Of a stretch of DNA of 64,000 nt, positions 6,472-62,829 are shown in pieces. The notes under the pieces were generated by a model. It made no database searches and was not told the origin of the DNA. It worked only from the letters and a program-made list of their open reading frames with translations. How positions within the stretch are numbered: the first letter of the stretch is position 1; each line of letters begins with the position of its first letter. Source of the DNA: Pseudomonadota bacterium. GTDB taxonomy: Bacteria; Desulfobacterota; Desulfobulbia; Desulfobulbales; CALZHT01. The position numbers and the translations under genes are program-made. Location: the NCBI GenBank assembly GCA_018823135.1, contig JAHJJF010000126.1, positions 14,302-78,301 on the forward strand, read 5' to 3'.

Positions 6472-6482
6472 GACTTTTCACC

Positions 6483-7708: not shown

Positions 7709-7712
7709 AATA

Positions 7713-9365: not shown

Positions 9366-9433
9366 TCTTCCTTATAAGCTGATGTTTCTTGCTTGTGACA
9401 GCTCTAAATTTCTCCGGAGCTGGTATTTCCCTA

Positions 9434-38760: not shown

Positions 38761-39291
38761 ATGCAAGAAGACAATCTCCCCCTTCATGTTCGCAGATCCC
38801 CCCGCCTGGGCAGAGGGGCGGCTTTTCGCTGCCTGTTTTTTTTATTTCTCTGGTACGTGCTCACCCCTGAGGGAGCAAGCTGGGTCCTCGGAATACCCGC
38901 AGTATTGCTTGCCGTATACATCAGCCTGCTGCTGGCCCCGGCAACCGCTCACACCCTGAGTTTCATCGGCGCCTGTCATTTTCTGCCATACTTCCTGTCC
39001 CAGTCGCTCTCCAGTGGAATCGACGTAAGCCGTCGCGTCCTTTCGCCCAGCTTGCCGATCAATCCCGGCCTGGTAATCTATTCGACTTTTCTGCCGGAGG
39101 GCTCCCCACGGATTTTTTTTATTAATACCATCAGTTTGCTCCCCGGCACTTTAAGCGCCGACCTCCATGACAACAAGGCGACCATTCATACTATTGATAA
39201 AGATCTTCATGTCTGGGAAAATATTCAAAACCTGGAATGTCGGGTAGCAGCCCTGTTCAGCTTAAAAACAACACCGGAGGGAGAAATTTGA
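38761..39291 (+). CDS. mrpE: Mrp/Mnh antiporter subunit E-like
   Basis: LLPGTLSADL...IHTID...ECRVAALF resembles the MnhE family, and it sits in context with F and G. Confidence 0.6.
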   Translation: MQEDNLPLHVRRSPRLGRGAAFRCLFFLFLWYVLTPEGASWVLGIPAVLLAVYISLLLAPATAHTLSFIGACHFLPYFLSQSLSSGIDVSRRVLSPSLPINPGLVIYSTFLPEGSPRIFFINTISLLPGTLSADLHDNKATIHTIDKDLHVWENIQNLECRVAALFSLKTTPEGEI

Positions 39292-39572
39292 ATTTCTACA
39301 TACTCTGCTCCTTTATCCTTTTGCTTGCCATTGTCCTGGGACTTGTCAGAATCCTCAAAGGCCCCAGTGCAGCTGACCGGATGATGGCGGCACAACTTTT
39401 CGGTACCTGCGGTGTCGCAATTCTTCTGCTGCTGGAGAAAGGACTGGCAGGAGAAACATACCTGTCAGATATTGCATTGGTCTTTGCCCTGCTGGCATCT
39501 CTGGCCACCACGACTTTCGTCCACCGCGCTTGGTCAGCTGCAGACAAGGAGCACTCCAGTGGGAATTCTTGA
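39288..39572 (+). CDS. mrpF: Mrp/Mnh antiporter subunit F
   Basis: VRILKGPSAADRMMAAQLFG motif. The TTG start at 39288 follows GGAGGGA and overlaps the E stop. Confidence 0.65.
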   Translation: MNFYILCSFILLLAIVLGLVRILKGPSAADRMMAAQLFGTCGVAILLLLEKGLAGETYLSDIALVFALLASLATTTFVHRAWSAADKEHSSGNS

Positions 39573-39576
39573 TACC

Positions 39577-39861
39577 ATGGGCATTATATTGATCATTCTG
39601 GGCCTGCCCTTTTTCCTTTCAGGCTCCATCGGACTCATACGCCTGCCGGATATCTACAACCGCCTGCATGCATTGACCAAAGCCGATAATGTCGGGCTCG
39701 GCTTTATACTTCTCGGTCTGACCCTGCAGGCAGATAACCTTACAAGCCTTTTCAAACTATTCTTTATCTGGATACTGGTACTCATCGCCAGTTCAGCCTC
39801 CTGCCACCTCATCGCCCGCAGCGCAATCCGCAAAGGAATCAAACCATGGTCCCGCCAATGA
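39577..39861 (+). CDS. mrpG: Mrp/Mnh antiporter subunit G
   Basis: GSIGLIRLPDIYNRLHALTKADNVG motif. An alternative GTG start lies at 39559. Confidence 0.7.
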   Translation: MGIILIILGLPFFLSGSIGLIRLPDIYNRLHALTKADNVGLGFILLGLTLQADNLTSLFKLFFIWILVLIASSASCHLIARSAIRKGIKPWSRQ

Positions 39862-40844
39862 ACATCATGCTCGCCGGATTTGATATCATCCTGATCGCCT
39901 CGCTGCTCTGGCTTGCCTGGAACATTCTTGCAACAGATGATATTTTCAAGGCAGTTGTACTCTTTATATCTTTCAGCCTGCTCATGGCCCTTTGCTGGGT
40001 GAGGTTACATGCTCCTGATGTTGCAATGGCCGAAGCAGCAATCGGCGCAGGTCTCACCGGCCCGTTATTTCTTGCAGCCCTCAGGCGCATGAAACGTATC
40101 CATAAATCCGAACGCAGAATGGACCTGGAAGAAAAACGCCCGGATCAACAACAAACCGCCGGTCCGGCTTCCGGAAGATTCAATCCTGTATTATTGATGC
40201 TTATCCTGCTGCTTGCCTGCCTCACCGGTTTACTGGCCGTTGTCAGCGGCATCCTGCCCGTGCAGACCGAAGGGCTGGGAAACCTTGTTGCCGACCACCT
40301 GCCGCGCAGCGGCGTAACCAGTCCGGTAACCGCAGTTCTCCTTAACTTTCGCGGGTATGACACCTTGCTGGAGATAATGGTACTCCTGGTGGCGGTAATC
40401 GGCGTCTGGTCCCTGAACCCGGCACCCATGCCCAGACAGACCATGGATACCAGCCCTGTACAGGTATCCCTGGTCCGGTTACTTGCACCGGTTATGACGC
40501 TGGTGGCTTTCTATCTGGTCTGGCAGGGAGCCGCCAGAGTCGGCGGCGCCTTTCAGGGCGGAGCGGTTCTCGGCGGTGCAGGAGTCCTGTTGCTGGTTAC
40601 CAATTTCACCTGGCTGCATGCCATACCTTCCCGACCGCTTCGCCTCGGCCTGACCCTGGGCCCGACAGTCTTTCTCGGCATCGCCGTCTGGTGCATGATC
40701 AGCAATGGAACCCTTCTGGCTTACCCGGAATCCTCGGCCGGTTCATTGATCCTGGTAATCGAAACAGCCTGCGCTCTTTCAATCGGCATTTCGCTCACCG
40801 CCCTTTTTGCAGGAGGAAGACCGAATGATTCTCTCTCCGAGTAA
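39858..40844 (+). CDS. Fusion of a DUF4040-like (MrpA C-terminal-type) segment and an MnhB domain
   Basis: The N-terminus DIFKAVVLFISFSLLMALCWVRLHAPDVAMAEAAIGAG is DUF4040-like. The later segment SPVTAVLLNFRGYDTLLEIMVLLVA is MnhB-like. The start forms an ATGA overlap with the G stop. Confidence 0.6.
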   Translation: MNIMLAGFDIILIASLLWLAWNILATDDIFKAVVLFISFSLLMALCWVRLHAPDVAMAEAAIGAGLTGPLFLAALRRMKRIHKSERRMDLEEKRPDQQQTAGPASGRFNPVLLMLILLLACLTGLLAVVSGILPVQTEGLGNLVADHLPRSGVTSPVTAVLLNFRGYDTLLEIMVLLVAVIGVWSLNPAPMPRQTMDTSPVQVSLVRLLAPVMTLVAFYLVWQGAARVGGAFQGGAVLGGAGVLLLVTNFTWLHAIPSRPLRLGLTLGPTVFLGIAVWCMISNGTLLAYPESSAGSLILVIETACALSIGISLTALFAGGRPNDSLSE

Positions 40845-40920
40845 TGCCCGGAAATATCATCTGCTGAAGACGACTCCCAAGACCGAATATGTTCAAAGTG
40901 AGACACTGAGAGAATAAGTC

Positions 40921-41250
40921 ATGAACACCAACCTCCTTTATGACCTTGCCGGAATACTTTTAGTCGCCTTCGGACTGTTCGCTTTGATAGTCTGCGCACA
41001 CCCTTTACGGAAAATTCTGGCGGTGAACATCATGTCAACAGGGGTTTTTCTTGTTTTCATTGCAACCGCATATGGAACCGGCATGGAAGCAGTCGATCCG
41101 GTTCCGCAGGCAATGGTCCTCACCGGCATCATCGTCTCATTGAGCATCACCGCCCTGGCGCTTATTCTGGCCTGTCGAATCCAGGAAACAACCAATCTTT
41201 TCCGGCTCCGGTCAGAGAAATCCGAGGATCAGAGGGCAATTGAATCATGA
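40921..41250 (+). CDS. mrpC: Mrp subunit C (NuoK-like)
   Basis: A 109 aa three-TM protein containing PVPQAMVLTGIIVSLSITALAL. Confidence 0.7.
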   Translation: MNTNLLYDLAGILLVAFGLFALIVCAHPLRKILAVNIMSTGVFLVFIATAYGTGMEAVDPVPQAMVLTGIIVSLSITALALILACRIQETTNLFRLRSEKSEDQRAIES

Positions 41251-42761
41251 TGCACCTTGATGCACCTTTCTGGATAGTCTGCCCGGTCATCCTGCCGATA
41301 TCAGCAGCCCTGCTCTGCTTCATCAGCCAACGCAGATCTCCAATTATCGCCTTGACAGCCGCCTCTGGAAATATCCTGGCTGCAGGCATTCTTTTCAGAC
41401 ACTTATCACTATTCGGTGCCCGCCAGTATATGCTCGGCAACTGGCCCTCTCCCCTGGGCATTTCCCTGAACCTCGACGCCCCGGCACTGCTGATGCTGGC
41501 GATGACCGCGGTTACCGGACTGGGCATTACACTCTATGCACGAGGATATTTTCTGTTCCGTCTCGCTGCGAAGCATTCGGACACCCACAAGGCCCAGGAA
41601 CAATATTTCTGGCCATTATGGATGATGCTCCTGGCGGCGCTGAATGCCCTTTTTCTGTCCAATGACATTTTCAATCTCTATGTAACCCTTGAGCTTTTAA
41701 GCATTTCAGCAGTCGCCCTCGCCGCACTTTCACGAAAACCCGCATCACAGATAGCCGCTTTCCGCTACCTCCTGGTCAGCCTCCTGGGATCAACCGGTTA
41801 TCTGCTGGGAGTGGCCCTGCTCTATAAGTTCTACGGAGTCCTTGATCTGAGTATGCTTCGGGAGTTGATTACCTCCGAACCCGGGGCACAGACAGCCCTG
41901 GTGCTGATCAGTGTCGGCCTTTTGCTTAAAACTGCGGTCTTTCCCCTGCATTTCTGGCTTCCTCCCACTCATGCAAACGCCCTGGCGCCGGTGAGCGCAA
42001 TCCTTTCAGGGCTTGTGGTGAAAGCATCGTTCTACCTGATGTTCCGCCTCTGGTTCGATGTTTTTACCCCGGTAATTTCCCCACAGGCACTTAATCTCAT
42101 GGGTATTATGGGGGCAGGGGCGATTCTCTGGGGAGCGGTGCAGGCCATGCGCCAAACACGTCTGAAACTGCTTATTGCCTATTCCACCGTTTCGCAGCTG
42201 GGTTATCTTTTCATCGCTTTCCCCCTTGTCCGCCTGGACAGCGGCCCGCATGCCTGGAACGCCGTCATCCTGATGGCCATGGCCCATGCCTGTGCAAAGT
42301 CCGCAATGTTCATGGCAGCGGGCACGATCTCCCTGCATTTCAACCATGACCGGATCAATGATCTAACCCGCGTCAGAGAATTTCTGCCCATGACTGTTTT
42401 CGCCTATGGTATTGCCGGGGCCAATCTCATGGGGATTCCTCCTTCCGGGGGATTCATCGCCAAATGGCTCCTGCTCACCTCGTCATTTAACACATCACAA
42501 TGGTGGTGGGGACTGATTGTCATAGCCGGCAGTCTCCTGGCGGCTGCATATGTCTTCAAAGTCATCAGCAGGCTTTTTGTTGTCATCCCTTCGGAACAGA
42601 CCCTTTTAATCCGCCGGCAGCACAGCGCATCCCTTGAATTCCCGGCTCTGGCCATGGCGATCATTTCAATGCTGATGGGAATACTATACCCCTACATCGA
42701 CCAGATCCTTTCCCTTGAAGGAACTTTCAAGTCGGCTTTTATTGCAGGAGGGATTCCATGA
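41247..42761 (+). CDS. mrpD: Antiporter-like subunit 1 (MrpD/NuoN family)
   Basis: TLELLSISA...LLKTAVFPLHFWLPPTHANALAPVSAILSGLVVK...AYSTVSQLGY. The start forms an ATGA overlap with C. Confidence 0.8.
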   Translation: MMHLDAPFWIVCPVILPISAALLCFISQRRSPIIALTAASGNILAAGILFRHLSLFGARQYMLGNWPSPLGISLNLDAPALLMLAMTAVTGLGITLYARGYFLFRLAAKHSDTHKAQEQYFWPLWMMLLAALNALFLSNDIFNLYVTLELLSISAVALAALSRKPASQIAAFRYLLVSLLGSTGYLLGVALLYKFYGVLDLSMLRELITSEPGAQTALVLISVGLLLKTAVFPLHFWLPPTHANALAPVSAILSGLVVKASFYLMFRLWFDVFTPVISPQALNLMGIMGAGAILWGAVQAMRQTRLKLLIAYSTVSQLGYLFIAFPLVRLDSGPHAWNAVILMAMAHACAKSAMFMAAGTISLHFNHDRINDLTRVREFLPMTVFAYGIAGANLMGIPPSGGFIAKWLLLTSSFNTSQWWWGLIVIAGSLLAAAYVFKVISRLFVVIPSEQTLLIRRQHSASLEFPALAMAIISMLMGILYPYIDQILSLEGTFKSAFIAGGIP

Positions 42762-44257
42762 ACGCACAGGGATGGCTTCTCCTCTCCATACTTTTCTGTT
42801 CATTCGTCCCTGGAATCATCATCTTCACCCTGCGCGAGGAAAGCACCTATCTGCGGACCAGCCTGAACCTTCTGGGCGCAACCCTGCTGATCACCCTTAT
42901 CCTGATCATGGACGTCGGCATCTACCTCGGCCAAACCTACGAAATCCGCCTGCCGGTTCTTGAAGGCCTGGAATTAATCCTCAACGCCGATCCCCTTGCC
43001 GCTCTCTTTACCACATTATCCGGCGTGCTCTGGTTTCTCACCACCATCTACGCCGTGGGTTACCTGGAAGACTCGCCCAACCGCAGCCATTTCTTCGGCT
43101 ATTTCAGCCTGTGCATCACGGTCACCACCGGCATCGCCCTGGCAGGCAACCTGGTGACATTTTTCCTGTTTTATGAAATGCTTACCCTGACCACCTATCC
43201 GCTGATCATCCACCGCGGCACTCCCGCCGCACTCCGGGCCGGCCGCAATTATCTGATTTATACCCTGAGCGGCGGGGCGGTCTTTCTGTTTGCCGTGGCA
43301 TGGTTGCAGACATTAGCAGGATCAACGGAATTCACTGCCGGAGGATTTTCGCCCCTCCTCCTAGAAGGCCACAGCACCGAACTTACCGTTATTTTCACCT
43401 TGATGATCCTTGGTGTCGGCGTCAAGGCAGCCATGTTCCCCCTGCACGGCTGGCTGCCCCAGGCCATGGTGGCCCCGGCGCCGGTAAGTGCCTTATTGCA
43501 TGCCGTTGCCGTGGTCAAAGCCGGCGCCTTCGGCATAATCCGCATTGTCCTTGACGTCTACGGCATCGAAAACACCCAAAGCCTCGGACTGTTAACGCCC
43601 CTCACTACCGCTGCCGCCATAACCATTATTTACGGATCGATCCGGGCAATCCAGCAGGACGATCTTAAGCGACGACTGGCCTTTTCTACGGTGAGCCAGA
43701 TATCCTACATCATCCTCGGGGTCAGTATGGCCTACCAACCCCTGACGGCAATCGGCGGACTGGTGCATCTCGTTCACCAGGGACTGATGAAGATCACCCT
43801 GTTCTTCTGCGCCGGCAACCTGGCAGAAACCCTAGGGATACACAATATAAGCGAAATGCAGGGGGTCGGCCGCCGCATGCCGCTGACCATGGCGGCATTC
43901 ACTGTCGGCGCCCTGGGGATGATCGGCATTCCGCCCACTGCCGGATTTGTCAGCAAATGGTATCTCGGGATGGGCGGTCTTGAAGCCGGGAATTGGTGGA
44001 TCATCGCCGTGCTGGTGATCAGCAGCCTGATGAACGCCTTTTATTTTCTACCCATTATACTTGGGGCATGGTTTAAAGAACCAACCGGCCCCTGGCCGGA
44101 GGCTCGTGACTTCGGCCGCCTGGAAACGGGCTGGATGCTGCTGTTGCCGCCCTTGATTACCGCCCTTGCGGTGATAATCGTCGGACTCCTTGCCAATGCC
44201 CAGATGAGTCCTCTGGCCTGGGCAGAGTTCATCGCTGCCAGGGAGTACGGACGATGA
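42758..44257 (+). CDS. Antiporter-like subunit 2 (MrpD/NuoM family)
   Basis: FYEMLTLTTYPL...VKAAMFPLHGWLPQAMVAPAPVSALLHAVAVVKAG...FSTVSQISY. Confidence 0.8.
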   Translation: MNAQGWLLLSILFCSFVPGIIIFTLREESTYLRTSLNLLGATLLITLILIMDVGIYLGQTYEIRLPVLEGLELILNADPLAALFTTLSGVLWFLTTIYAVGYLEDSPNRSHFFGYFSLCITVTTGIALAGNLVTFFLFYEMLTLTTYPLIIHRGTPAALRAGRNYLIYTLSGGAVFLFAVAWLQTLAGSTEFTAGGFSPLLLEGHSTELTVIFTLMILGVGVKAAMFPLHGWLPQAMVAPAPVSALLHAVAVVKAGAFGIIRIVLDVYGIENTQSLGLLTPLTTAAAITIIYGSIRAIQQDDLKRRLAFSTVSQISYIILGVSMAYQPLTAIGGLVHLVHQGLMKITLFFCAGNLAETLGIHNISEMQGVGRRMPLTMAAFTVGALGMIGIPPTAGFVSKWYLGMGGLEAGNWWIIAVLVISSLMNAFYFLPIILGAWFKEPTGPWPEARDFGRLETGWMLLLPPLITALAVIIVGLLANAQMSPLAWAEFIAAREYGR

Positions 44258-45999
44258 CCGATTATTTTTCCACCAATGCCATTCAGGCCTTTCTTTTATC
44301 GCTGGCTCCCGGGCTTCCCCTGGTGACTGCCTGTGCCTTTCTGGTCCCATCAATACGGTCACTGGCATACAGATTATTTCCCTGGGCGGCCTTACCCGCT
44401 TTACTGGTAGCTCTTTTTGGTTCGACTACTGTGGCCATCGAAATCCCCTGGTTTTTCATGGGAGGCCGCATCGGTCTCGATGACTTAGGTAAAACCTTTT
44501 TGCTGTTCACCTCTTTTCTCTGGCTGGTATCAGGATTATTCGGCCGGGAATACCTGGCGGACGACACCAAACGTTTCCGTTTCCAGATCTTTTATCTCCT
44601 GGCGATGAGTGGTAATTTCGGGCTCATCCTTGCCCAGGACATGCTGAGCTTTTATCTGTTTTTCACCCTGATGAGCTTTGCCGCCTACGTGCTGATTATC
44701 CATGATGGCAGCGACAAAGCCCGCCGTGCAGGCCGGATCTATCTCTGGCTGGTGGTGGTGGGCGAGGTCATCCTCTTTACCGGCATGATCATTCTTGCAC
44801 AAACTTCCTCAAGCATGGCTTTCAGCAAAATAGATAAAGACCTCTCCGGGATTATTCTGCTTGCACTCCTTTTCCTGGGATTCGGAATCAAAGCCGGCGC
44901 CTTGCCGCTTCATTTCTGGCTGCCGGTGGCCCATCCTGCCGCACCTTCCCCGGCCAGTGCAGTCTTAAGCGGCACAATGATCAAAGCCGGCCTCCTGGGC
45001 TGGCTCCGCTTCCTCCCGGTGGGCAGCACAAACCTCACAGAAGGGGGAATATTCTTTCTGATCGCCGGACTTCTTGCGGCATTCTATGGTATTACCGCAG
45101 GTTTCTTCCGAAACAATCCGAAAACCGTGCTGGCCTATTCCAGCATCAGCCAGATGGGACTGATGACAGTCATCGTCGGCAGCGGCATGATCCTCCCCCA
45201 GATCTGGCCGAAGGCAGTAACCGCTGCATCACTGTATGCCTTCCATCATTGCCTGGCCAAAGGCAGTCTTTTTCTTGCAACAGGTGTGGCAAAGAATGGC
45301 TGGAATAGAGGAATTCCGGCATGGTTGTTTCGCGCCGGCCTCATCCTGCCGTCCCTGGCCCTTGCCGGTATGCCGTTCACCAGCGGCGCAATAGCCAAGT
45401 CGGCATTGAAAAGTATAACCACCAATCTTCCCGAACCATGGCATGAAGTATGCTCTATTCTGTTACCGCTGGCCGCCGTCGGTACCATGGCGCTGCTCGT
45501 ACATTTCCTCAGACTCACCTGGCAGCCATCCAGGCAAGACAATAGGCATGGCCAGGGACTTCGCAGGGCGTGGATGTTCAATCTGGCCGGCGTCGCTGTC
45601 ACCCTGTGGCTATGGCCCGGCTCAGAAACAGCGGCACGCCATTCCCTTACTCCGGGCACGGTGATTCACGGCCTCTGGACTGTGGCGGCAGGCTGTCTGC
45701 TGGCTTTCGCCTTAACAAGACTGATCAGACAGCGCCCAACTGCTCAAGAAAGCCATCCCGGGGTTGATTCCTTCCCGCAGAAAATTTTCAAAAAACTCTT
45801 CCTGCATTGCTTTCCGGACAGATCAGCGCGGGGGCAACATGGGGATTTATCGAAGTACAAAGTAGATGGGAGAAACACCAGGTTTCAAGTAATTGAAGTG
45901 CAGTTGGGGAAAATTGAGAAAATTTTCGGAAGATGGACAATCAGCGGTTTATTTTTTCTGATGATCAGCATCCTGATCATCTTATCGCTGAGGTCCTGA
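44254..45999 (+). CDS. Antiporter-like subunit 3 (MrpA-N/NuoL-like) with a unique tail of about 100 aa
   Basis: IKAGALPLHFWLPVAHPAAPSPASAVLSGTMIKAG...AYSSISQMG. The C-terminal region has no recognisable match and ends in one TM helix. Confidence 0.75.
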   Translation: MTDYFSTNAIQAFLLSLAPGLPLVTACAFLVPSIRSLAYRLFPWAALPALLVALFGSTTVAIEIPWFFMGGRIGLDDLGKTFLLFTSFLWLVSGLFGREYLADDTKRFRFQIFYLLAMSGNFGLILAQDMLSFYLFFTLMSFAAYVLIIHDGSDKARRAGRIYLWLVVVGEVILFTGMIILAQTSSSMAFSKIDKDLSGIILLALLFLGFGIKAGALPLHFWLPVAHPAAPSPASAVLSGTMIKAGLLGWLRFLPVGSTNLTEGGIFFLIAGLLAAFYGITAGFFRNNPKTVLAYSSISQMGLMTVIVGSGMILPQIWPKAVTAASLYAFHHCLAKGSLFLATGVAKNGWNRGIPAWLFRAGLILPSLALAGMPFTSGAIAKSALKSITTNLPEPWHEVCSILLPLAAVGTMALLVHFLRLTWQPSRQDNRHGQGLRRAWMFNLAGVAVTLWLWPGSETAARHSLTPGTVIHGLWTVAAGCLLAFALTRLIRQRPTAQESHPGVDSFPQKIFKKLFLHCFPDRSARGQHGDLSKYKVDGRNTRFQVIEVQLGKIEKIFGRWTISGLFFLMISILIILSLRS

Positions 46000-50420: not shown

Positions 50421-51572
50421 TCATATCCTGTTCATCACAAAGCCGGCAAGTTCGTTTCCGGTTCGGTAATCAATATCCAGGAATGACATGCCTATATTGA
50501 ATTTATCTTCAGAAGAGGGTTCAACCCGCACAACCGTGCTGGCAAAAAGCTGCTGTTTTTCATCCTGAAGGGTGAACTGAGTCAGTAATCTCGTACCAGG
50601 GGAAATATTGTCGCTGCTTTCAACCATCATCCCCCCCCTGCTGATATCTCTGCATTGAGCAGCATGCATGATATCATCGTTGAATCGCTGCTCTTTAAGT
50701 TTGATATCTCCATGGCAGTCAACACGAACATAGCGTCGTTTGTCTCCGGAAAAAAGAACTATCCTGTTCTTTCCGGCGGCTTTGGCGCTGTACAGAGCGG
50801 AATCGGCAGCCTCGACCAGCCTTTGTGGTGCCGTTGTATCATAGGGATATGAAGCAAGCCCCCCGCTTATGGTAACCTTAAGAACCCGACCCTCATAGAC
50901 GAATCGCGCCTCATCAATCTCCTGCCTGATCCGCTCTCCGATCTCATGGGCATGCACTTTGGGGGTATCAGGGAGCAGAAGGAGTATTTCCTCGCCGCCA
51001 TAACGGACCGCAACATCCTCAATTCTCTTGCGCTTGCGGATGATTTCCGCAACACTTTTTAAGATCAGATCACCGCCCAGGTGTCCGTATGTGTCATTAA
51101 TCAGCTTGAAATTATCCAGGTCAAAGAACAACAGCGATAAATCACTGTGATGCCTTTCGGCGCGAGAAACTTCGCGGGTAAAAACCTCGTTAAATACCCG
51201 ACGATTCAATAAGCCGGTCAATTCATCCAGTTTTGAAAACTGGGCGGTTTTTTCATAGAGATGGATTTCTATTACCTTAGGATTCTTCAAGTACTTGTGA
51301 ACCGTACAGAAATAGTCGCAGATGGCGGTCCTTAAGCTTACCGAGCGGCCCAAATCCGATTTCATCTCAGCATAGTGAAGAATAATTTTCTGCCAGTAAT
51401 TTTCAGCCTCGGCGTTAGAGAGGTCAATGCTTGCCAGAATATTCAGTATAACTGAATAAACAGATTTTCCATGTTCGGCGACAAGTTGCCGCATCTCAAC
51501 CAGCAAACCGTCTTCATCATTTGAAAAGTCTTCAAGGGTCGCAAGTATGGTATCTCGTAAGGTCTGATTCAT
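50421..51572 (-). CDS. Diguanylate cyclase (GGDEF) with a C-terminal PilZ domain
   Basis: RYGGEEI active site with an RIED I-site 5 residues upstream. PilZ motifs RRYVRV and DISRGGM are present. The ATG at 51572 is preferred over the adjacent TTG. Confidence 0.8.
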   Translation of the reverse strand: MNQTLRDTILATLEDFSNDEDGLLVEMRQLVAEHGKSVYSVILNILASIDLSNAEAENYWQKIILHYAEMKSDLGRSVSLRTAICDYFCTVHKYLKNPKVIEIHLYEKTAQFSKLDELTGLLNRRVFNEVFTREVSRAERHHSDLSLLFFDLDNFKLINDTYGHLGGDLILKSVAEIIRKRKRIEDVAVRYGGEEILLLLPDTPKVHAHEIGERIRQEIDEARFVYEGRVLKVTISGGLASYPYDTTAPQRLVEAADSALYSAKAAGKNRIVLFSGDKRRYVRVDCHGDIKLKEQRFNDDIMHAAQCRDISRGGMMVESSDNISPGTRLLTQFTLQDEKQQLFASTVVRVEPSSEDKFNIGMSFLDIDYRTGNELAGFVMNRI

Positions 51573-51960
51573 CAAATTGGTTCTGAAAACTCTTTTTACT
51601 GAGTAAAGGAGGCTATATCGATTAGAAAAAAAACTAACCAGTAAATTCTCTTGCTTGGGGAACTGCTTGAAAACGCCGCCCGTTTAATCATTTTGCGAGC
51701 CAGTTAAGACCCGAAACGATATAGTATTTTTGCTTTATTTTATGCAAAAATCATTCCGCGCCGCATGATATAAATCTTTGAGAAACATATCAAACAGTTA
51801 GAGGCAGTCATGAAAATTGACACAGAAAAGATTATGGGAAGCCGTTCGGAACAACGGAAACTATTACATGATTCCGGAAAAACAAAACTACGAAACTCTA
51901 CAGGTTTATCAGGAATTATACATCACAGAAATTTGAACAGCACCAGCCAGTGCATCCTGT

Positions 51961-52440: not shown

Positions 52441-53046
52441 TCATCTTTTTCGTCGTCGGAAAGCCCCGATTCCGATAAGCCCGGTCCCCAAGAGCAGCAT
52501 TGTCGCCGGTTCAGGTATTGAAGCCATGCCGTGATTGGTAATCGATGCTTGGACCATCACCGTGTTACCACTGATAATTCCAAAAACATCAAGAAAATCG
52601 ACACTGATATCATTACCGAAAAGACTGAAATTATGAGGTAATGGCGGCCTGTCCCAGAGTATAGCCCCCGCGGTAAATGACCCGCTAAAGGCGACTGCCG
52701 CAGCGGAAGCTTCCGCTGTTGTATCAGCAGTTACGAGCGGCGAATCAAAAGCAAGTGTTGCCTCCACATCTGCAGATACAAATCCTGTTCCACCTAAAGT
52801 GATCCAGAAAAAATCAATAACTCTGGATTCTCCGTCATTCAGAGTAAAAATTTCCGCGTCCAAAGTGGATGCGAGAGCTGCGTTAAGTGTCAGTGGGTCT
52901 TTTGGATCAGATACGACAAATAGATTACTGAAAGAAAATGATGAATCCGGATCGTCCGCCACATCAAATGTTACTGGTGTTGCCGACGCGAGACTTGAGA
53001 ATAATAAGGCACAGGTGCCTATTGCAAATATGAGCAGTTTTTTCAT
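52441..53046 (-). CDS. PEP-CTERM sorting-domain secreted protein
   Basis: Signal peptide MKKLLIFAIGTCALLFSSLASA. The C-terminus is IPEPATMLLLGTGLIGIGAFRRRKR. AGGAGGG precedes the ATG at 53046. Confidence 0.85.
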   Translation of the reverse strand: MKKLLIFAIGTCALLFSSLASATPVTFDVADDPDSSFSFSNLFVVSDPKDPLTLNAALASTLDAEIFTLNDGESRVIDFFWITLGGTGFVSADVEATLAFDSPLVTADTTAEASAAAVAFSGSFTAGAILWDRPPLPHNFSLFGNDISVDFLDVFGIISGNTVMVQASITNHGMASIPEPATMLLLGTGLIGIGAFRRRKR

Positions 53047-53120
53047 GGCTCCCTCCTTTCCTTCAATAAAATTCAACGCTCCACTGCACTGAGACGGAAT
53101 AAATCTAACAAGCTGATAAT

Positions 53121-53279: not shown

Positions 53280-53310
53280 AAAAAAAGGCCCCCCAAAAAT
53301 CGGGAGGCCT
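53280..53310 (-). terminator. Rho-independent terminator after the cytochrome operon
   Basis: The minus strand reads AGGCCTCCCGATTTTTGGGGGGCCT followed by TTTTTTT. Confidence 0.75.
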
Positions 53311-53343
53311 AGAGTAGCAATATTGCTCGTTATCGAAATAAAC

Positions 53344-53907
53344 CTACTGCTTGGGATGACACCGCTTGCAATGCTGTATAGAGGTAACACTGAAGGCCTT
53401 ATGACCGTTATGGCAGTTGCCGCAGTATTTGCCCTTTTTCATTTCATCCATGGTGAGATGGCCTTTTTTTACGACATTTTTCCCCACCTTCATAAGGAAC
53501 ACCTTGGGATGGCACTCCACACAGCGCAATTGCTCACGCTCGGTGTGTTTTTTATGGCTGAAAACCGCAGACACCTTGCCATCAGGGGCATCCATGGAAA
53601 AATCATCGGGGAAATAGCCGTGCTGGACCATTTGCTCCATGGCCTTGGCTTTATCCTTTTTGGCGTCCTGCTTATTTTTCTCAGCATCGGCCATGGCTTT
53701 TTCCGCATCCTCAATGGCACGCTCTGCAGCAAGAACCGCTTTTTCCGCCTCGCTTCTCGCCTTTTCAGCCTCCTTCAATGCCTGAGCCGCATACTCGGCT
53801 GAGTCCGACCAGGATATGCGGGGTTGGATCAATACCGCTGTCGAGACAATTGCACAGATTATTGCGGCAGTTGTAATCAATTTCAATATATTATTGCCTG
53901 TTAGCAT
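53344..53907 (-). CDS. Membrane-anchored triheme c-type cytochrome (c7/c3-like) with a long Ala/Glu/Lys-rich helical spacer
   Basis: One N-terminal TM helix, a charged helical region at about aa 37-95, then CVECH, CGNCH and CKRCH. Confidence 0.8.
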   Translation of the reverse strand: MLTGNNILKLITTAAIICAIVSTAVLIQPRISWSDSAEYAAQALKEAEKARSEAEKAVLAAERAIEDAEKAMADAEKNKQDAKKDKAKAMEQMVQHGYFPDDFSMDAPDGKVSAVFSHKKHTEREQLRCVECHPKVFLMKVGKNVVKKGHLTMDEMKKGKYCGNCHNGHKAFSVTSIQHCKRCHPKQ

Positions 53908-53946
53908 AAATTTTCTCCCTTGGTATATAATACCATCAACTCCCGG

Positions 53947-54378
53947 TTATTTATGTTCAACCGTCACATTCGTATCTTCTTTCTCCGGCACGATTTTTCC
54001 TTGCTCGACAAGTTCATTGTAGCCCTTGACGCCGATATGACAGCGGGCGCATTGGGTGGTCGTTGAAAAAGAAATATCGCCATTATGGCATGTTCCGCAG
54101 TATCTTTCGTTACAAAGACTCTGCATATCGAAATCAGCGGTCTCCTGCATGGCCAGCGCTTCCATTTCAAAAGTCTCTTCATGGCACCAGTCGCAATGCA
54201 GACCAAGGTCTTCGGTATGGGCTTTATGGCTGAAAATAACCGCCTTGAGCGGTTTGGTATAAATTATATCACCGCCATGCTCAGGAGCTTCTTCTTCATC
54301 TTCAGCAAACACTGCTGCAGAATTAAGAAAAAACGCTGCTGCAACTGCCAGCAATAAAAGAAATAAAAGTTTTTTCAT
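53947..54378 (-). CDS. Periplasmic triheme c-type cytochrome (c7/c3-like)
   Basis: Signal peptide, then CDWCH, CGTCH and CARCH. The ATG at 54378 follows AAGGTGA. Confidence 0.8.
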   Translation of the reverse strand: MKKLLFLLLLAVAAAFFLNSAAVFAEDEEEAPEHGGDIIYTKPLKAVIFSHKAHTEDLGLHCDWCHEETFEMEALAMQETADFDMQSLCNERYCGTCHNGDISFSTTTQCARCHIGVKGYNELVEQGKIVPEKEDTNVTVEHK

Positions 54379-54478
54379 TTTCTTCACCTTTTATAAGAAT
54401 TCCTGTCCCGGATATTTTTAAATGCCCGTTGAAGCGCATGATCCCGGATCTTTTGCCTATTGATTATCAAATGTATTA

Positions 54479-55279
54479 TTATCTTTCTTCCGCCTGCCTT
54501 CTGAGTTCCCATGGCGAAGATCTGGTTGCCTTCATGTAAAAGACATTGGGCTTGGTACCAGCCTCCGGCCGCAGCACCCATACCTGTTTTTCTATCTGAT
54601 GGACCATTTTATAGATAACATTTTCCGGGTCGGAGACATCACCGAACATCCGGGTTCCGGTTGGACAGGCATTAGCACATGCGGTGAGCTTCTTGCCTTT
54701 TGAAAGACGTGTATCCCAACAGAAATTGCACTTATCAATGGCGTGTACTTCCTCATTGAAGTATCTGGCCTCGTACGGGCAGGCAAGAATACACATCTTG
54801 CAACCGATGCACTTCTTCCTATCCATCATTACAATACCGGTGGTTGGATCCTTGTAAGTAGCTTTGGTCGGACATCCACGGGTGCATGGCGCCTCATTAC
54901 AGTGATTGCAAAGGATCGGGATAAATTCCCGCTGCCTGCCGATGGCATCCGTAACCCTTTTCCGCAGAATTCTGGTCCGGTATCCATAGTCCGGAACATC
55001 ATTGGTTTCTTTGCAGGCGGTTACACATTGTTCACAGTCGATGCAAAGACCCTGTCGAATCACCATACTGTAATGCGGCCGGTAAGGGTATTGCTCTAAA
55101 AAGTCACTCGAGCTTGCAAACGCTTCATTGACATTGGAGACCAGCGACAGCAGTTTGCCGCCGGCAAAAACGCCGGTGACGGCAAAGCCGATTTTTAAAA
55201 ATGCCCTCCGTTCCAGACCGGTGACGGAGCGCAGGCCTTCATCCTTAATTGTATCAAGGTTTATTTTCGAAAACTTCAT
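54479..55279 (-). CDS. Tat-exported 4Fe-4S ferredoxin-type subunit (NrfC/PsrB/DsrO-like)
   Basis: ERRAFLKIGFAVTGVFAGG twin-arginine signal. Cys clusters are CIDCEQCVTAC, CNHCNEAPC, CIGCKMCILACP and CNFC. Confidence 0.85.
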   Translation of the reverse strand: MKFSKINLDTIKDEGLRSVTGLERRAFLKIGFAVTGVFAGGKLLSLVSNVNEAFASSSDFLEQYPYRPHYSMVIRQGLCIDCEQCVTACKETNDVPDYGYRTRILRKRVTDAIGRQREFIPILCNHCNEAPCTRGCPTKATYKDPTTGIVMMDRKKCIGCKMCILACPYEARYFNEEVHAIDKCNFCWDTRLSKGKKLTACANACPTGTRMFGDVSDPENVIYKMVHQIEKQVWVLRPEAGTKPNVFYMKATRSSPWELRRQAEER

Positions 55280-55317
55280 TATATCTATTCCTCCTTAATT
55301 GCTCAGTTCAGAAATCA

Positions 55318-56643
55318 TTAATCGTCACGATCTACCTTGCGAACCCGGTGATGACGCTTGAGGGATTCTTCTTCGGATTCACCTTCCTTCTTGTAGTGAA
55401 TTCCACCACAACCAGGGCAGACATACGCGCCTGGAGGGACGATTTCATGTTTCTGGAACTGATGGCCGTTCAGCATCCTCTCACCTAATAAATAAAAAAC
55501 ACCGGCGAATGAAAGGCCCGCTACCACTACCGAAATTTCATGAAAAGAAGGGGTGTATTCAAGAAGGGAGCTGTACTCATCAACACCAAGTGAATGAAAG
55601 ACCGGAACGATCTGACCGGCAAGCACCAGGTCATAACGCATGAAAAATATGCCGATCATCATAAATGACGATGCAATAAACATCTTCCTGAGGTCCCTGC
55701 CCTCGGACTGAATCAACAGAATAAAAGGAATCACCATGCCCAGCAGTACTTCAGCACCCCAGAAATTAAGGGCATACCTGCCGAGAACAAATGCTTTAAT
55801 GGCTACATATTTTTCAGGGGCGACAACACCGCTGATAATTTTCCATATGGTAAAAAACATGATAATCGCAATCAGCATCGTAGTGAGCTGACACACCGCC
55901 TTGATGCTTCTCTCCATGCGACGGCTCATGATATGCCGGTCGATTCTCCAGGAAATGCAGGTAAACAGAATGATTGCGGCACCGCCTGACATCATTGCCG
56001 AAACAATGAAATAAATCGGCATATAAGGACCGTACCAGAACTCACGACCGTGCAGCATGCCGAACACCGCTCCGAGATTGCTATGGGCCGCAACCCCGAA
56101 GATGACGCCGAACAAACCGAAAATTCTAGACCAGGCGTGATTCTGATCAAGGAGGAAGAAATATTCAATCCCCAGGGCGATCAGATACAGGGTATAGAGA
56201 GTTCCCATCCACCACATATTCGATGTGAGGTTTGGCGAAAACGCATTATAAATCGGCATGCGGAAAGGATTTTCCACATCAAAAAAGATAATAATAAAGC
56301 CGCCGAGCATGAAGGTAATGGAAAGAAATACCGCTCTTTTTGCTATGGGCATATAAGGTTCATAGCCAAAGACATGGCCGATGGATGAAACAAGACAGAG
56401 TCCGGTGGATGTTACAACGCAGAAAATATAGGCAGAAATCAACAGACCCCAGGGGATCTGGCGGGTGACGCCGTAAACATGGCGATACCCGGTAAAAGTA
56501 CCATGCAGGCCAACGGCCAGGCCGTAGAAAACCAGGAGTCCCAACAGGCCAAGAATACCCAGTAAAACCTTATTGGATCGAAAAAGGGCCCCCACCCCGG
56601 TGTACCCCCATCTCTCCGCTGTATCTTTGTGTATTTGAATCAT
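55318..56643 (-). CDS. NrfD/PsrC-family membrane quinone-interacting subunit with a charged C-terminal tail carrying one CPGC motif
   Basis: A polytopic membrane protein. The tail is ...YVCPGCGGIHYKKEGESEEESLKRHHRVRKVDRDD. The ATG at 56643 follows AGAAGGAGAG. Confidence 0.8.
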   Translation of the reverse strand: MIQIHKDTAERWGYTGVGALFRSNKVLLGILGLLGLLVFYGLAVGLHGTFTGYRHVYGVTRQIPWGLLISAYIFCVVTSTGLCLVSSIGHVFGYEPYMPIAKRAVFLSITFMLGGFIIIFFDVENPFRMPIYNAFSPNLTSNMWWMGTLYTLYLIALGIEYFFLLDQNHAWSRIFGLFGVIFGVAAHSNLGAVFGMLHGREFWYGPYMPIYFIVSAMMSGGAAIILFTCISWRIDRHIMSRRMERSIKAVCQLTTMLIAIIMFFTIWKIISGVVAPEKYVAIKAFVLGRYALNFWGAEVLLGMVIPFILLIQSEGRDLRKMFIASSFMMIGIFFMRYDLVLAGQIVPVFHSLGVDEYSSLLEYTPSFHEISVVVAGLSFAGVFYLLGERMLNGHQFQKHEIVPPGAYVCPGCGGIHYKKEGESEEESLKRHHRVRKVDRDD

Positions 56644-58703: not shown

Positions 58704-60149
58704 TTACGGCTCGTCATGACAAACACTGCAATCCTGGGAGATTGAATTTCCTTCAGGATTCAGGTGCTCTTCATCATGGCAACGGAAACAACCATAGCCC
58801 TCTTCGGCACGCTGGTGGCCGAGATGTTTCCCGTAAGTTCCCCATAAAACGTTCATCGCCGGCCAGACATTGCCTAAATATCCAGCAAGGAGATATTCCC
58901 CGGCCCGCTTGATATCAGCAGCATATTGCTTGGCCTTGGCAGGATCTCTTTTCTTCTGCAATTCCACCAGGTTTCTGACCATTATTTCCTGGGCCGCTTC
59001 ACGGCTTTCATATTCCTTGGTCAGAACCGCCAAACCATCTTCACGAATACCCGGAACATCAGGATTTATTTTTCTGCTGAGCAGTCCGGCATCAATTACC
59101 TCTTCAGGCATCTGATAGATGTGCGTCGGTCGATTATGGCAGTCAATACAATCCATGATCCGCCATTCATGGGTCTCATCCTCCGCAACATCGATGTCTT
59201 CCTTGACAAATTCATCATGGCTGCCGTCCGGGCGAGTAACCTTGACTCTGGCAATCTGAGTCCGTTTTGCATCGGCTGCAAGGTAACTCACCTGGACATC
59301 TTTACTGACATGCCAGTGAATACCTTCAAATGCATCAGTCTGAGGATTACGTCCACCGATATGCAAGGCGATTTCCGTGACTTCAGGTTGAGCCTGCTCT
59401 TCATTGGAAAAATGCTGGAATATTTTAATCTTTTTCCCATGAAACTTGTCCGGCCAATGGCATTCCTCACAGGTATCCCGAGCCGGGCGAAGATGTTCCA
59501 CCGGTGCCGGGATCGGGCGACTGTAACTACCCGCCATAACCGCCGCGACCTGGCGAAGACCTGAAATTTTCGCGCGAACGAACCAGTCGGCGCCCGGACC
59601 GATATGACACTCAACGCACTTTACTTTGACGTGCGGAGAGCGCTGATAAACTGCATATTCCGGCTCCATGACCGTGTGGCAGACCCTGCCGCAGAAAAAT
59701 GACGAATCGGTAAAATGATATCCCTCATAAGCGATTACCACCAGGATAGAAAGATTGATTACCGTAAGCGCGATAAATCCAACAAGCCATCTTCTATGCT
59801 TGTGATCACTGAGGTTAATATGAAGATGATCCCGTGCAATCCCGTATTTGCGCCAACGGCGGCGTCTTACAAATGCCGCGATGGGGATCAACAAGAGACC
59901 GGTTACCATCCCGCCCGGCAGCAACAGATACGTTGCCATGGCGGCATAGGGATTATGGATAAGCCCAAGGACATCCAGAGCCAGCCCGACGAGCATCAGG
60001 GTGATACTGACTGTAGTGATGGCAACTCCCATCAGGCCCAACGGGGAACGCCACATGCCGCGGATTATATAATGCCAGCCGCTTTTATAATTTTCCCTGT
60101 TTTCCGTATCCTGATCAGATAAATTTTGTTTGTTTTCGTCAACACTCAT
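58704..60149 (-). CDS. Integral-membrane hexaheme cytochrome c, NapC/NirT-related (three predicted N-terminal TM helices)
   Basis: Haem motifs are CGRVCH (CX3CH), CVECH, CEECH, CIDCH, CFRCH and CSVCH. FCGRVCHTVMEPEY matches the NapC/NirT first-haem context. Confidence 0.8.
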   Translation of the reverse strand: MSVDENKQNLSDQDTENRENYKSGWHYIIRGMWRSPLGLMGVAITTVSITLMLVGLALDVLGLIHNPYAAMATYLLLPGGMVTGLLLIPIAAFVRRRRWRKYGIARDHLHINLSDHKHRRWLVGFIALTVINLSILVVIAYEGYHFTDSSFFCGRVCHTVMEPEYAVYQRSPHVKVKCVECHIGPGADWFVRAKISGLRQVAAVMAGSYSRPIPAPVEHLRPARDTCEECHWPDKFHGKKIKIFQHFSNEEQAQPEVTEIALHIGGRNPQTDAFEGIHWHVSKDVQVSYLAADAKRTQIARVKVTRPDGSHDEFVKEDIDVAEDETHEWRIMDCIDCHNRPTHIYQMPEEVIDAGLLSRKINPDVPGIREDGLAVLTKEYESREAAQEIMVRNLVELQKKRDPAKAKQYAADIKRAGEYLLAGYLGNVWPAMNVLWGTYGKHLGHQRAEEGYGCFRCHDEEHLNPEGNSISQDCSVCHDEP

Positions 60150-60537: not shown

Positions 60538-60963
60538 TTAATCGATTGATGAGGCGGCGACTTCTTTGGCTTCTATCATTGCCTTAATATAAACTCCGCA
60601 ACTTTCACAAAGTTTCAGTTCCTTGGCACATGCGGTGTTAGCTCTTTCCCAGCAGGGAATTGATCTATCCATAAAAGCCGAACATTTATCGCGTATTTCA
60701 GGATGACAATTCTTTATTTCCCAACAGGGTGTAAGTTCCAGCAGCATTTTAATCCCGGGAATACTGATTCCCTTCTCATGAATCAAGGCCCGGATACAAC
60801 GTACCCACTCAATGTCATCATTGGAAAAATAACGCTTATTGCCCCTTCTTGATGGTTTAATAAGCCCTTCCTGCTCATAAATCCGCAGAGTTCTCGGATG
60901 AACCGAGAGAAGTTTCGATGCAACGCTTATGGGATATATCGGATCACTGTTTTCAACAGCCAT
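60538..60963 (-). CDS. MerR-family transcriptional regulator with a Cys/Trp-rich C-terminal domain
   Basis: The N-terminus ISVASKLLSVHPRTLRIYEQEGLIKPSRRGNKRYF is a MerR HTH. The C-terminus is CWEIKNC...C...CWERANTAC...CESC, with 7 Cys and 2 CW pairs in about 48 aa. Confidence 0.75.
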   Translation of the reverse strand: MAVENSDPIYPISVASKLLSVHPRTLRIYEQEGLIKPSRRGNKRYFSNDDIEWVRCIRALIHEKGISIPGIKMLLELTPCWEIKNCHPEIRDKCSAFMDRSIPCWERANTACAKELKLCESCGVYIKAMIEAKEVAASSID

Positions 60964-61362: not shown

Positions 61363-62829
61363 TCATTCGGAACAGATCTGCAAAGCTTTACCCGCCGGCT
61401 TATTCTCTGCAAGAATAATATGGCATGACTCGCAATCAATGGTTATCACCTGACCGGATGCTGATTGCAATGATCCGTCGTGACATCGGAAACAACCGGC
61501 ATTAGCACCCTTGTGGCCGATGAAATTCTTATAGCTTCCCCAGGAAATCTTCATTTCAGGGAAAACATTTTCAGCATAGGCCTTTTGAACCCCCCTTACA
61601 GACTTGGCAAGTATTGTTGCATCGCTTTCGACTATTTCAGGATAGTTGTTTTTATACCAGCTCATTAACTGGATGGCGATCATGTTACTTGCTTTCTCCG
61701 AAGTTTCATACTCCTGGGTGATTATCCTAAGCCCCTCCCGCTTGATAAACGGCAAATCCGTTGATATTTCCCCGCTTAAAAGCTTTTTATCCAGAGCCTC
61801 GTCCGGTGCAAGGAAAATATGGGTCGGCCGATTATGACAGTCCATGCAATCCATGATCCGGGTGCTGCCAGAGGCGTAAGAATACTCATCCGGAGAATTT
61901 TCCTCTGCACACACGGGATCTCTGGAGTAAATCGTTTCCATCCCCTTTTTATCCACAAGGGTTACTTTATAAATATCTTCACGCGCCTGATCGGCATGAC
62001 TGTACTTGATGGTATTTTCCTGGGACACGTGCCAGTGAATGCCATGGGCCTTCTGGCCGCTGTACCCGCCGGAACCGACCTTCATGAGCAGAGCGGTCTG
62101 AACATGGGTATTTTTCTCATCGGGCAAAAATTTATCTTTAACATAAAGCTTATCGCCGTGAATCATTTCAGGCCGATGACACTCTTCACAGGTCTCCCTA
62201 AAGGGACGGAGACCGCCGATGGGGGTCTCTATGGGGCGGCTGTAAGTTTTCATGGCAACCGCGGCAAGCTGTTTCACCCCGGATATCTTAGAACGGGCAA
62301 ACCATTGCGCCGCTTCTCCCAGATGACATTCAACACAGGGCACGCGGGAATGGGGTGAATTCTGATAAGTAATGAATTCAGGCCTCATGACTTCGTGACA
62401 GAATTGGGCGCAGAAACTTACTGACTCTGTGTAATGAAAGGCTGAATAGGAAAACATCACAACAACTAAAAAGGTCAGATTGATAATGACCGTGGTCAAT
62501 AAAATGAGCCGCCGAACTCTGGTGAAACGTCCGGGTTTGGTAAATTGTTCTTTAAGATACTCAAAGGCATAAACACCGATTTCCTCGTCATTCTTACAAA
62601 ATAACACTCCAAAAAGAACCAGTACCAGACCGAGCACAAACACCGGTCCCATGACCATATAGGTGAGAAAGCCGAAATAGGGATTTTTGATAAGCCCTTG
62701 CATATCGAGAGCTGCGGAGATCAACAGAAAAGGAAACATCATCACCGACATGATGGCGCCGATTACCGCAACTTTACTGCGGGCAATTCCATCGAATAAA
62801 ATTCTCAGTATATCTCCGATTTTTGACAC
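61363..62829 (-). CDS. Integral-membrane hexaheme cytochrome c, paralog of 58704-60149
   Basis: Haem motifs are CAQFCH (CX3CH), CVECH, CEECH, CMDCH, CFRCH and CESCH. Blocks shared with the paralog include RIMDCxDCHNRPTHI and GIHWHVS. The GTG start follows AGGGA. Confidence 0.8.
   Translation of the reverse strand: MSKIGDILRILFDGIARSKVAVIGAIMSVMMFPFLLISAALDMQGLIKNPYFGFLTYMVMGPVFVLGLVLVLFGVLFCKNDEEIGVYAFEYLKEQFTKPGRFTRVRRLILLTTVIINLTFLVVVMFSYSAFHYTESVSFCAQFCHEVMRPEFITYQNSPHSRVPCVECHLGEAAQWFARSKISGVKQLAAVAMKTYSRPIETPIGGLRPFRETCEECHRPEMIHGDKLYVKDKFLPDEKNTHVQTALLMKVGSGGYSGQKAHGIHWHVSQENTIKYSHADQAREDIYKVTLVDKKGMETIYSRDPVCAEENSPDEYSYASGSTRIMDCMDCHNRPTHIFLAPDEALDKKLLSGEISTDLPFIKREGLRIITQEYETSEKASNMIAIQLMSWYKNNYPEIVESDATILAKSVRGVQKAYAENVFPEMKISWGSYKNFIGHKGANAGCFRCHDGSLQSASGQVITIDCESCHIILAENKPAGKALQICSE

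Follow-up and report, generated by a model that had tools for sequence, protein, structure and literature searches.

The window analysed here is a 64,000-nucleotide stretch of contig JAHJJF010000126.1 from a bacterium of the Desulfobulbales (assembly GCA_018823135.1), and our subject is a group of four closely packed open reading frames (ORFs) at 53344-56643 on its minus strand. They encode, in this order, an NrfD-type membrane protein, an exported ferredoxin and two triheme cytochromes of the c7 type, here called c7a and c7b. All four genes were placed using the ORFs of the window and their translations, and their content, order and positions are those described in a first-pass annotation of the same DNA. 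Because the spacing is tight and a hairpin resembling an intrinsic terminator lies 3' of c7b, the four genes are regarded as one operon. This hairpin (53286..53310, minus strand), with an 11-bp stem and a T run, is located 34 nt past the c7b stop and is the operon end. With a probability of roughly 0.6, its products form a quinone:cytochrome c oxidoreductase of the NrfCD type that is so far uncharacterised. Two of its conserved features are new: a triheme cytochrome carrying what looks like an alanine zipper, and a predicted zinc-finger-like tail on NrfD.

The membrane subunit, the ferredoxin and the triheme domains

The NrfD gene (55318-56643, minus strand) codes for 441 aa counted from the ATG at 56643. 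Its integral membrane part, residues 1-391 (55471..56643, minus strand), belongs to the Pfam NrfD family (PF03916, E=1.7e-25, 90.8 bits against a cut-off of 25.8). Hydropathy predicts 10 transmembrane (TM) helices, and the same ten are found in the AlphaFold2 model (predicted TM-score, pTM, 0.84). Lys and Arg are more frequent in those loops that are predicted to be cytoplasmic and also near both ends of the protein, and from this charge distribution both termini should be cytoplasmic. The invariant residues concentrate in the periplasm-side loops, the side on which the quinone site is presumed to lie. Comparison of NrfD with the PDB by sequence and by profile gave nothing, and relatives surfaced by fold search only: Foldseek with the NrfD model returned ActC of alternative complex III first (TM-score 0.71, 15-17% identity), followed by ActF and PsrC.

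The remaining residues, 392-441 (55321..55470, minus strand), form a C-terminal cytoplasmic tail with the motif HEIVPxGxY[IV]CPGCGxIH[YF]xxEGExEExxxxRHH, which is common to all NrfD relatives of 431-455 aa and missing from a basal clade of 415 aa. In the AlphaFold2 model two strands (406-408 and 415-417) place the CPGC in a hairpin turn, and a helix (424-432) ends in the His-His pair. C409, C412, H416 and H431/H432 are conserved, the beta-beta-alpha unit is modelled at a predicted local distance difference test score (pLDDT) of 58-74, and matches to Pfam zinc-ribbon families are sub-threshold. A charged cytoplasmic tail with a lone CPGC had been noted before; the tail stands, while the CPGC is not alone and is part of a conserved C-x2-C...H...HH arrangement. 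The model thus predicts a zinc-finger-like unit on the cytoplasmic side, and the Cys2-His tail probably binds zinc as a structural or docking element. A search of 1.84 billion representatives with the tail profile gave 15 weak matches, which were repeated zinc knuckles and one NrfD fragment, and no independent family. In a metagenomic C-terminal fragment of NrfD (P0183) a four-Cys zinc ribbon of the topoisomerase type follows the CPGCGG and replaces the His ligands. This exchange is consistent with a metal-binding role of the tail and, at the level of sequence, suggests a metal-binding unit which is open to swapping.

The second gene (54479..55279, minus strand) encodes a ferredoxin of 266 aa with an ERRAFLK twin-arginine motif for export by the Tat pathway and 16 Cys in four [4Fe-4S] motifs. 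It is a four-cluster ferredoxin of the NrfC/PsrB type (Fer4_11, E=1e-24), and its closest solved relative is PsrB (2vpw_B, E=5e-43).

The third gene (53947..54387, minus strand) encodes c7a, an exported cytochrome of 146 aa with a signal peptide, three CXXCH motifs and a C-terminal CH-IGVKGY. The fourth, c7b (53344-53907, minus strand, 187 aa), consists of an N-terminal hydrophobic segment, a helix and, in residues 96-187 (53347..53622, minus strand), three CXXCH motifs in a c7-type domain of the GSU1996 kind. Both are triheme proteins of the c7 type according to TIGR04257 (cut-off 40; c7a 65 bits, c7b 68 bits) and PF14522 (cut-off 24.8; 47 and 60 bits). Against the PDB, the profile of the c7b heme domain finds 3ov0 (E=5.8e-52) and 1rwj (2e-15). 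Besides the three proximal histidines, the triheme proteins have only two further invariant His, so one heme probably has a non-His distal ligand; in c7b Met139, Met153 and Met156 are invariant. The domains of GSU1996 have such a His-Met heme. On the opposite strand of c7b an ORF of 159 aa (53323-53802, plus strand) can be read, which is probably spurious because it lies wholly within the conserved c7b gene.

The alanine-rich helix of c7b

Between the export signal and the heme domain of c7b lies a helix of 60 residues (residues 36-95; 53623..53802, minus strand) with the heptad A-E-K-A-[R/M/I]-A-[D/E]. AlphaFold2 models it as one unbroken helix, with pLDDT 94-97 over residues 41-80 and the heme domain following it. 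To judge its conservation we used an alignment of 59 non-fused c7b orthologs, whose identity to the query is 43-62%. In the helix this alignment has zero insertion columns and only 5 gap cells, and its mean column identity of 0.71 lies between the values for the heme domain (0.80) and for the N-terminal signal (0.34). Heptad position a is always alanine at residues 54, 61, 68, 75 and 89 and almost always at 47 and 82; at position d alanine is fully or nearly invariant at 43, 50, 57 and 64 and weaker at 71 (44/59) and 78 (30/59). In the central heptads position e is Met or Ile, while b, c and g are occupied by Glu, Lys and Asp/Glu. Chance origin from low complexity was ruled out, since only 1 in 5000 shuffles of the window's c7b reaches its alanine periodicity of 3.5 residues.

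The pattern points to an alanine zipper under strong constraint. The alanine stripe together with the lack of insertions and deletions in the orthologs argues for tight helix packing and not for an inert spacer. A single-helix spacer would also allow exchanges of Ala to Glu or Ala to Lys, none of which is seen at the core positions, and this again favours packing. The first-pass annotation had called the segment a spacer, one whose absence or variability in orthologs would imply no functional constraint. Within this clade its length is fixed in all 59 orthologs, and with near-invariant alanine at most a and d positions the term is too weak. Because the operon encodes no other long helix, the stripe most likely packs on its own copy, and the helix would then most likely self-associate as a dimer or trimer.

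Alanine zippers are known from the Lpp/OprI lipoproteins, and two models of this type, the best matches of the c7b helix in NCBIfam and Pfam, find it below their thresholds (NF040598, E=0.0011, 19.5 bits against 43; PF11839 Alanine_zipper, E=0.049, 14.3 against 23.1). These proteins likewise have a helix of about 55-60 residues with alanine at the core heptad positions. However, c7b has neither a lipobox nor the C-terminal Lys and carries a C-terminal cytochrome domain, and we regard this as a resemblance and not as membership. A homolog search with the c7b helix alone returned nothing. An apparent match to c7b from residue 27 in a Nitrospirota locus (L037) turned out to be a multi-domain c7 protein beside a b-type cytochrome, which does not bear the helix.

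The N-terminal export signal of c7b (residues 1-35; 53803..53907, minus strand) is probably a cleavable Sec signal peptide. In the orthologs the median length of the hydrophobic core is 16 residues (range 10-25), and 56/59 contain a Pro/Gly-containing stretch after it. The last uncharged residue before the charged ones is Ala in 31/59 and small (Ala, Gly, Ser, Thr, Cys) in 47/59, usual ends being VQA|ED, VMA|EE, AWA|DE and RVWA|EE. When both cytochromes of the same genome are compared, the core measures 14-18 residues in c7b and 15-23 in c7a, which shares the A-x-A|acidic ends. From these features we estimate the chance that the signal is cleaved at about two in three. It is therefore doubtful that c7b is TM-anchored, as had been assumed: its core is no longer than that of c7a, and Pro/Gly and a small residue precede the acidic ones.

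If the signal remained uncleaved, as in that earlier model, the 9-nm helix might be a rigid stalk or ruler which leads from the membrane along the ferredoxin and positions the triheme domain beside c7a or further out. The strictly fixed helix length suits such a role, and by a hand estimate the roughly 9 nm spanned by 60 residues are similar to the height that NrfC with a c7 protein stacked on it should have. The fused sister forms (see below) can also be taken to show that c7b needs a tether, and the signal peptide of DsrJ does remain uncleaved as a membrane anchor. However, the hydrophobic core has only 10-13 residues in some orthologs, the c7b segment is shorter than the c7a signal peptide, and an anchor would not need the conserved Pro/Gly region and the small residue before the acidic ones. 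Such a stalk is conceivable but doubtful in our opinion, and we keep to a cleaved c7b whose helix forms an alanine zipper.

Distribution, probable gene fission and neighbouring genes

A pattern scan of one genome per species yielded 46 loci, and the window proteins were compared by tblastn. The order NrfD-ferredoxin-c7a-c7b is intact in 12 of 12 related genomes with sufficient flanking DNA (L003-L014). These belong to Desulfobulbia and Desulfobacterota, include the isolate "Desulfobacterota bacterium M19", and have NrfD proteins 60-82% identical to that of the window. In the distant loci L015-L046 the operon is absent and only plain c7 arrays are found. More than 2,300 relatives of NrfD exist at E<=0.001, and cultured hosts of the module include Desulfocapsa sulfexigens and strain M19.

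In one of the related genomes (L014) and in the proteins P0051, P0058 and P0060, c7a and c7b are a single polypeptide with an acidic linker. These fused forms keep just the last ~12-25 residues of the helix (ALEKMVxxGYFP). A larger clade with an NrfD of 435 aa, to which Desulfocapsa sulfexigens AGF79559.1 and metagenome-assembled genomes of Desulfurivibrio, Desulfopila and Desulfocapsaceae belong, keeps the tail and has a fused hexaheme upstream of NrfD. The tail-less 415-aa clade has a nonaheme downstream; in L051 (8092-8955) this partner comprises three c7 domains, so that a module can contain either two or three of them. A c7a-like domain ending in CH-[IT]GVKGY occurs in every module clade, also within the hexaheme and nonaheme partners, whereas the additional c7 domains differ between clades in number and position. 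With the window's DsrP as root, a neighbor-joining tree of NrfD places all lineages with the helix and two separate cytochromes in one monophyletic clade, to which the lineage with joined c7a-c7b is sister. Since the cytochromes are fused and the helix is largely missing in the sister lineages, the split form probably arose later. The simplest reading of the sequences is a gene fission, after which an export signal was gained and the helix extended.

Two genes 5' of the operon may be relevant for its function. They encode inner-membrane multiheme cytochromes which are similar to ImcH and ~36% identical to each other. The first (58704..60149, minus strand), outside the operon, has 3 TM helices, a CX3CH and five CXXCH motifs; the second (61363-62829, minus strand) has 3 N-terminal TM helices, CX3CH as first motif and five CXXCH. 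A MerR gene (60538-60963) lies between them. These three genes and an SPFH/Band7 gene are on the same strand as the operon, and a GNAT acetyltransferase gene among the 5' neighbours is on the opposite (plus) strand. In eight related loci (L005-L009, L011-L013) an ortholog of the first ImcH-like gene is found directly 3' of c7b, so that the co-occurrence with such genes, which the first-pass annotation had wanted surveyed, extends beyond the window.

No terminal reductase, hydrogenase or outer-membrane cytochrome gene is syntenic with the module in the loci examined, and no catalytic subunit (NrfA or a molybdopterin subunit) is encoded near the operon in the window or in related loci. The promoter scan at the operon gave 9 sites where 10.3 are expected, which is not beyond chance, and no promoter is claimed.

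Past the operon end follow genes for a protein with a PEP-CTERM sorting signal (52441-53076, minus strand) and a GGDEF-PilZ diguanylate cyclase (50421-51575, minus strand), an arrangement that recurs in the independent assembly L002. In L050 (2873-4967) and L054 (5885-8023), from Desulfurivibrio and a marine metagenome contig, a multiheme cytochrome c of 403-410 aa and a Ni_hydr_CYTB b-type cytochrome (CbcL/CbcBA-like) are encoded beside the NrfD module. About 45 kb from the operon, as previously noted, the window contains a complete dsrMKJOP (5302-10471), and between the two lies a cluster of Mrp/Mbh-type antiporter-like subunits (MbhD/MnhB, Proton_antipo_M; 38761-45999, plus strand). An ORF of 775 aa (2448-4775, minus strand) combines a cysteine-synthase-like PALP domain with a complete cysteinyl-tRNA synthetase, which is an unusual fusion. 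The remainder of the window consists of housekeeping genes.

Proposed function and comparison with known complexes

NrfCD dimers with a quinone site on the P-side are a widespread redox module, in which the site is located at the NrfD/NrfC interface and connected to an iron-sulfur relay, and which is electrogenic, electroneutral or energy-driven depending on the context (PMC13059093). Because of these known features we propose that the operon encodes a menaquinone/menaquinol:cytochrome c oxidoreductase. The ten-helix NrfD would bind menaquinol or menaquinone near the periplasmic face, and the exported ferredoxin would sit on NrfD and relay electrons through its four [4Fe-4S] clusters. c7a would dock on the ferredoxin, and c7b would contribute three further hemes as an accessory outlet or inlet to periplasmic partners, so that four clusters and six hemes would make up an electron wire. 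The separate genes of this clade would descend from an ancestral c7a-c7b fusion by fission, and c7b would have acquired its export signal and the 60-residue helix, which would hold it in the assembly through tight helix-helix packing.

Electron flow from menaquinol to periplasmic acceptors seems the more likely direction, because ImcH-like quinol oxidases are co-located with the module; ImcH itself is a quinol oxidase in Geobacter (10.1101/2023.05.03.539133). These neighbours speak against a flow in reverse, in which, as in Qrc, the cytochromes would take electrons from periplasmic donors (hydrogenase, formate dehydrogenase, sulfide oxidation or electron uptake) and NrfCD would reduce menaquinone with cytoplasmic protons in an electrogenic reaction. 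No gene for a hydrogenase, a formate dehydrogenase or a type I c3 is found near the operon, QrcB is absent and the Qrc cut-offs are missed (see below). On the other hand, the 10-TM NrfD has many invariant protonatable residues and resembles QrcD and ActC, c7a and c7b are weakly similar to QrcA (E about 1e-3), and Qrc, the sole NrfCD complex with demonstrated electrogenicity, runs this way (PMC13059093). Reverse flow is therefore a serious possibility, though not one we would expect, and menaquinol oxidation is kept as the working direction.

Several points weigh against the proposed oxidoreductase and its zipper. The four-protein complex is deduced from synteny, and Qrc, a similar module, runs the opposite way. 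Canonical coiled coils do not usually have alanine at both core positions, the E/K/A-rich helix of c7b could be a stable single helix, and with an uncleaved signal it may pack as a stalk against the ferredoxin and c7a and not form a self-associating zipper. Finally, the "putative nrfC and nrfD" of D. alkaliphilus, which may be homologous to the present module, are not induced by nitrate, and no inducing condition is known for them (PMC5516251). In a Desulfobulbaceae bin from an electrogenic biofilm an nrfD, perhaps a member of this family, was among the ten most expressed genes under fuel-cell conditions (PMC4595844).

The Desulfobulbia include sulfur disproportionators, sulfide oxidisers and relatives of the cable bacteria, and the electron link between their quinone pool and the periplasm is poorly known. 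A widespread module beside ImcH-like genes is a concrete candidate for this link, and the fixed-length zipper helix and the zinc-finger-like tail offer simple mutable handles on how NrfCD complexes recruit and position cytochromes. Going further, one might speculate that mature c7b, soluble or bound in the complex, is a "cytochrome on a stick", two to three copies joined by an Lpp-like zipper into a rigid rod of fixed length (~9 nm) with their triheme domains clustered at one end, and that the Cys2-His tail of NrfD is a cytoplasmic metal site coupling the module to an unlinked partner or signal. We think this combination unlikely. If true, such a rod would be an undescribed structural way to pass electrons over a defined periplasmic distance, unlike the PpcA-type shuttles, which diffuse, and unlike the unbroken multi-c7 chains of the "nanowire" kind.

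When the subunits are compared with equivalog models of characterised complexes, all cut-offs are missed (bits/cut-off: HmcC 58/550, DsrP 40/350, TtrB 174/416, NrfC 173/378, DsrO 165/200, QrcC 89/400, HmcB 74/420, QrcA 19/180). The profile comparison proposed in the first-pass annotation thus finds none of the Dsr, Hmc, Qrc, Nrf and Ttr complexes matched subunit for subunit, and Cbc4 and a cable-bacteria locus are set apart by their descriptions. The module had been called a second DsrJOP. Like the DsrJOP half of DsrMKJOP, it faces the periplasm and consists of an NrfD-type subunit, a Tat-exported ferredoxin and triheme cytochromes, and as had been stated the operon contains no cytoplasmic HdrD/DsrK-like partner. 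The sequences are distant or unrelated, however: NrfD is 19% identical to the window's DsrP over 206 residues, the ferredoxin 32% to its DsrO, and c7b has no similarity to its DsrJ, which is another cytochrome fold. With the DsrP and DsrO cut-offs missed and no dsrMK adjacent, membership was rejected and an analogy is all that remains. That a paralogous second DsrJOP acts with DsrMK in sulfite reduction is extremely improbable on the same grounds; the organism does possess dsrMKJOP, and the ferredoxin does reach 165 bits with the DsrO model, but the dsrMKJOP of the window is complete in itself.

The ferredoxin scores highest with the TtrB and NrfC models (~173 bits), which would suit cytochromes acting as dedicated donors, in the way of NrfB, through which an NrfCD quinol dehydrogenase feeds a specific reductase for nitrite, sulfite, polysulfide or thiosulfate encoded elsewhere. 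NrfBCD of E. coli works by this donor-to-reductase logic. D. alkaliphilus, moreover, has an NrfA without NrfH and NrfB (PMC5516251). However, no reductase gene is syntenic in any locus examined, all equivalog cut-offs are missed, and the missing nitrate induction mentioned above also speaks against it, so we consider this role quite improbable. Membership in NrfABCD, TtrABC or PsrABC was rejected because the NrfC and TtrB cut-offs are missed and no catalytic subunit is nearby. Hmc was rejected as well, as HmcC and HmcB are missed and the neighbours include neither the 16-heme HmcA nor HmcDEF.

The oxidoreductase we propose also has counterparts among quinone-linked complexes. With Qrc it shares the 10-TM NrfD, the four-cluster ferredoxin, a hexaheme complement, the lack of a cytoplasmic subunit and the periplasmic quinone site and partners (PMC13059093). 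Unlike Qrc, it has no QrcB and its hemes are divided between two proteins; QrcC and QrcA are missed and no QrcD match is listed, and therefore it was not assigned to QrcABCD. Alternative complex III (ActABCDEF) is a quinol:cytochrome c oxidoreductase whose ActC is the closest structural relative of our NrfD. Only this ActC-like fold is present, whereas the molybdopterin-like domain of ActB, the second NrfD-type subunit ActF, ActD, ActE and the pentaheme ActA are lacking, and none of the other Act genes is in the four-gene operon. The multi-c7 "nanowires" of the GSU1996 type have the same type of heme domain, and sister clades of our module have fused chains of two or three c7 domains, but the two cytochromes encoded here carry one such domain each. 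GSU1996 itself, a soluble chain with 12 hemes, is not known to be encoded beside NrfCD genes.

In terms of architecture, the analogy drawn earlier with Cbc-type complexes of Geobacter is valid. Cbc4 (CbcSTU) of Geobacter sulfurreducens, a proposed menaquinol:periplasmic cytochrome oxidoreductase of unknown physiological role (10.1101/2025.04.14.648717), likewise combines an NrfD-like subunit, a periplasmic four-[4Fe-4S] protein and a multiheme cytochrome c, CbcS, which is paired with CbcT and CbcU and has a linker between its anchor and heme domain. According to its description, CbcS is a tetraheme of the NapC/NirT type, anchored in the membrane, and its linker is unstructured; the two cytochromes of our module are trihemes of the c7 type, one of them with a structured zipper helix, and so membership was rejected. 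Within the Desulfobulbales, the "DsrOhPh-tetrahaem" locus of cable bacteria, a candidate alternative complex III proposed to transfer electrons from quinone to a periplasmic cytochrome, also has separate NrfD-type, ferredoxin and small multiheme cytochrome genes (PMC13047784). As described, a single tetraheme is encoded there, the gene order is ferredoxin-NrfD-cytochrome and the NrfD clusters near canonical DsrP, in contrast to the two trihemes, the order NrfD-ferredoxin-cytochromes and the 19% identity to DsrP found here. Shewanella SirCD and Cbc4 are precedents for quinol:cytochrome c modules of the NrfCD type (PMC11434368; 10.1101/2025.04.14.648717), and the best description of the present module would be an analogue of Geobacter Cbc4, Shewanella SirCD, Qrc and the ActBC core of alternative complex III.

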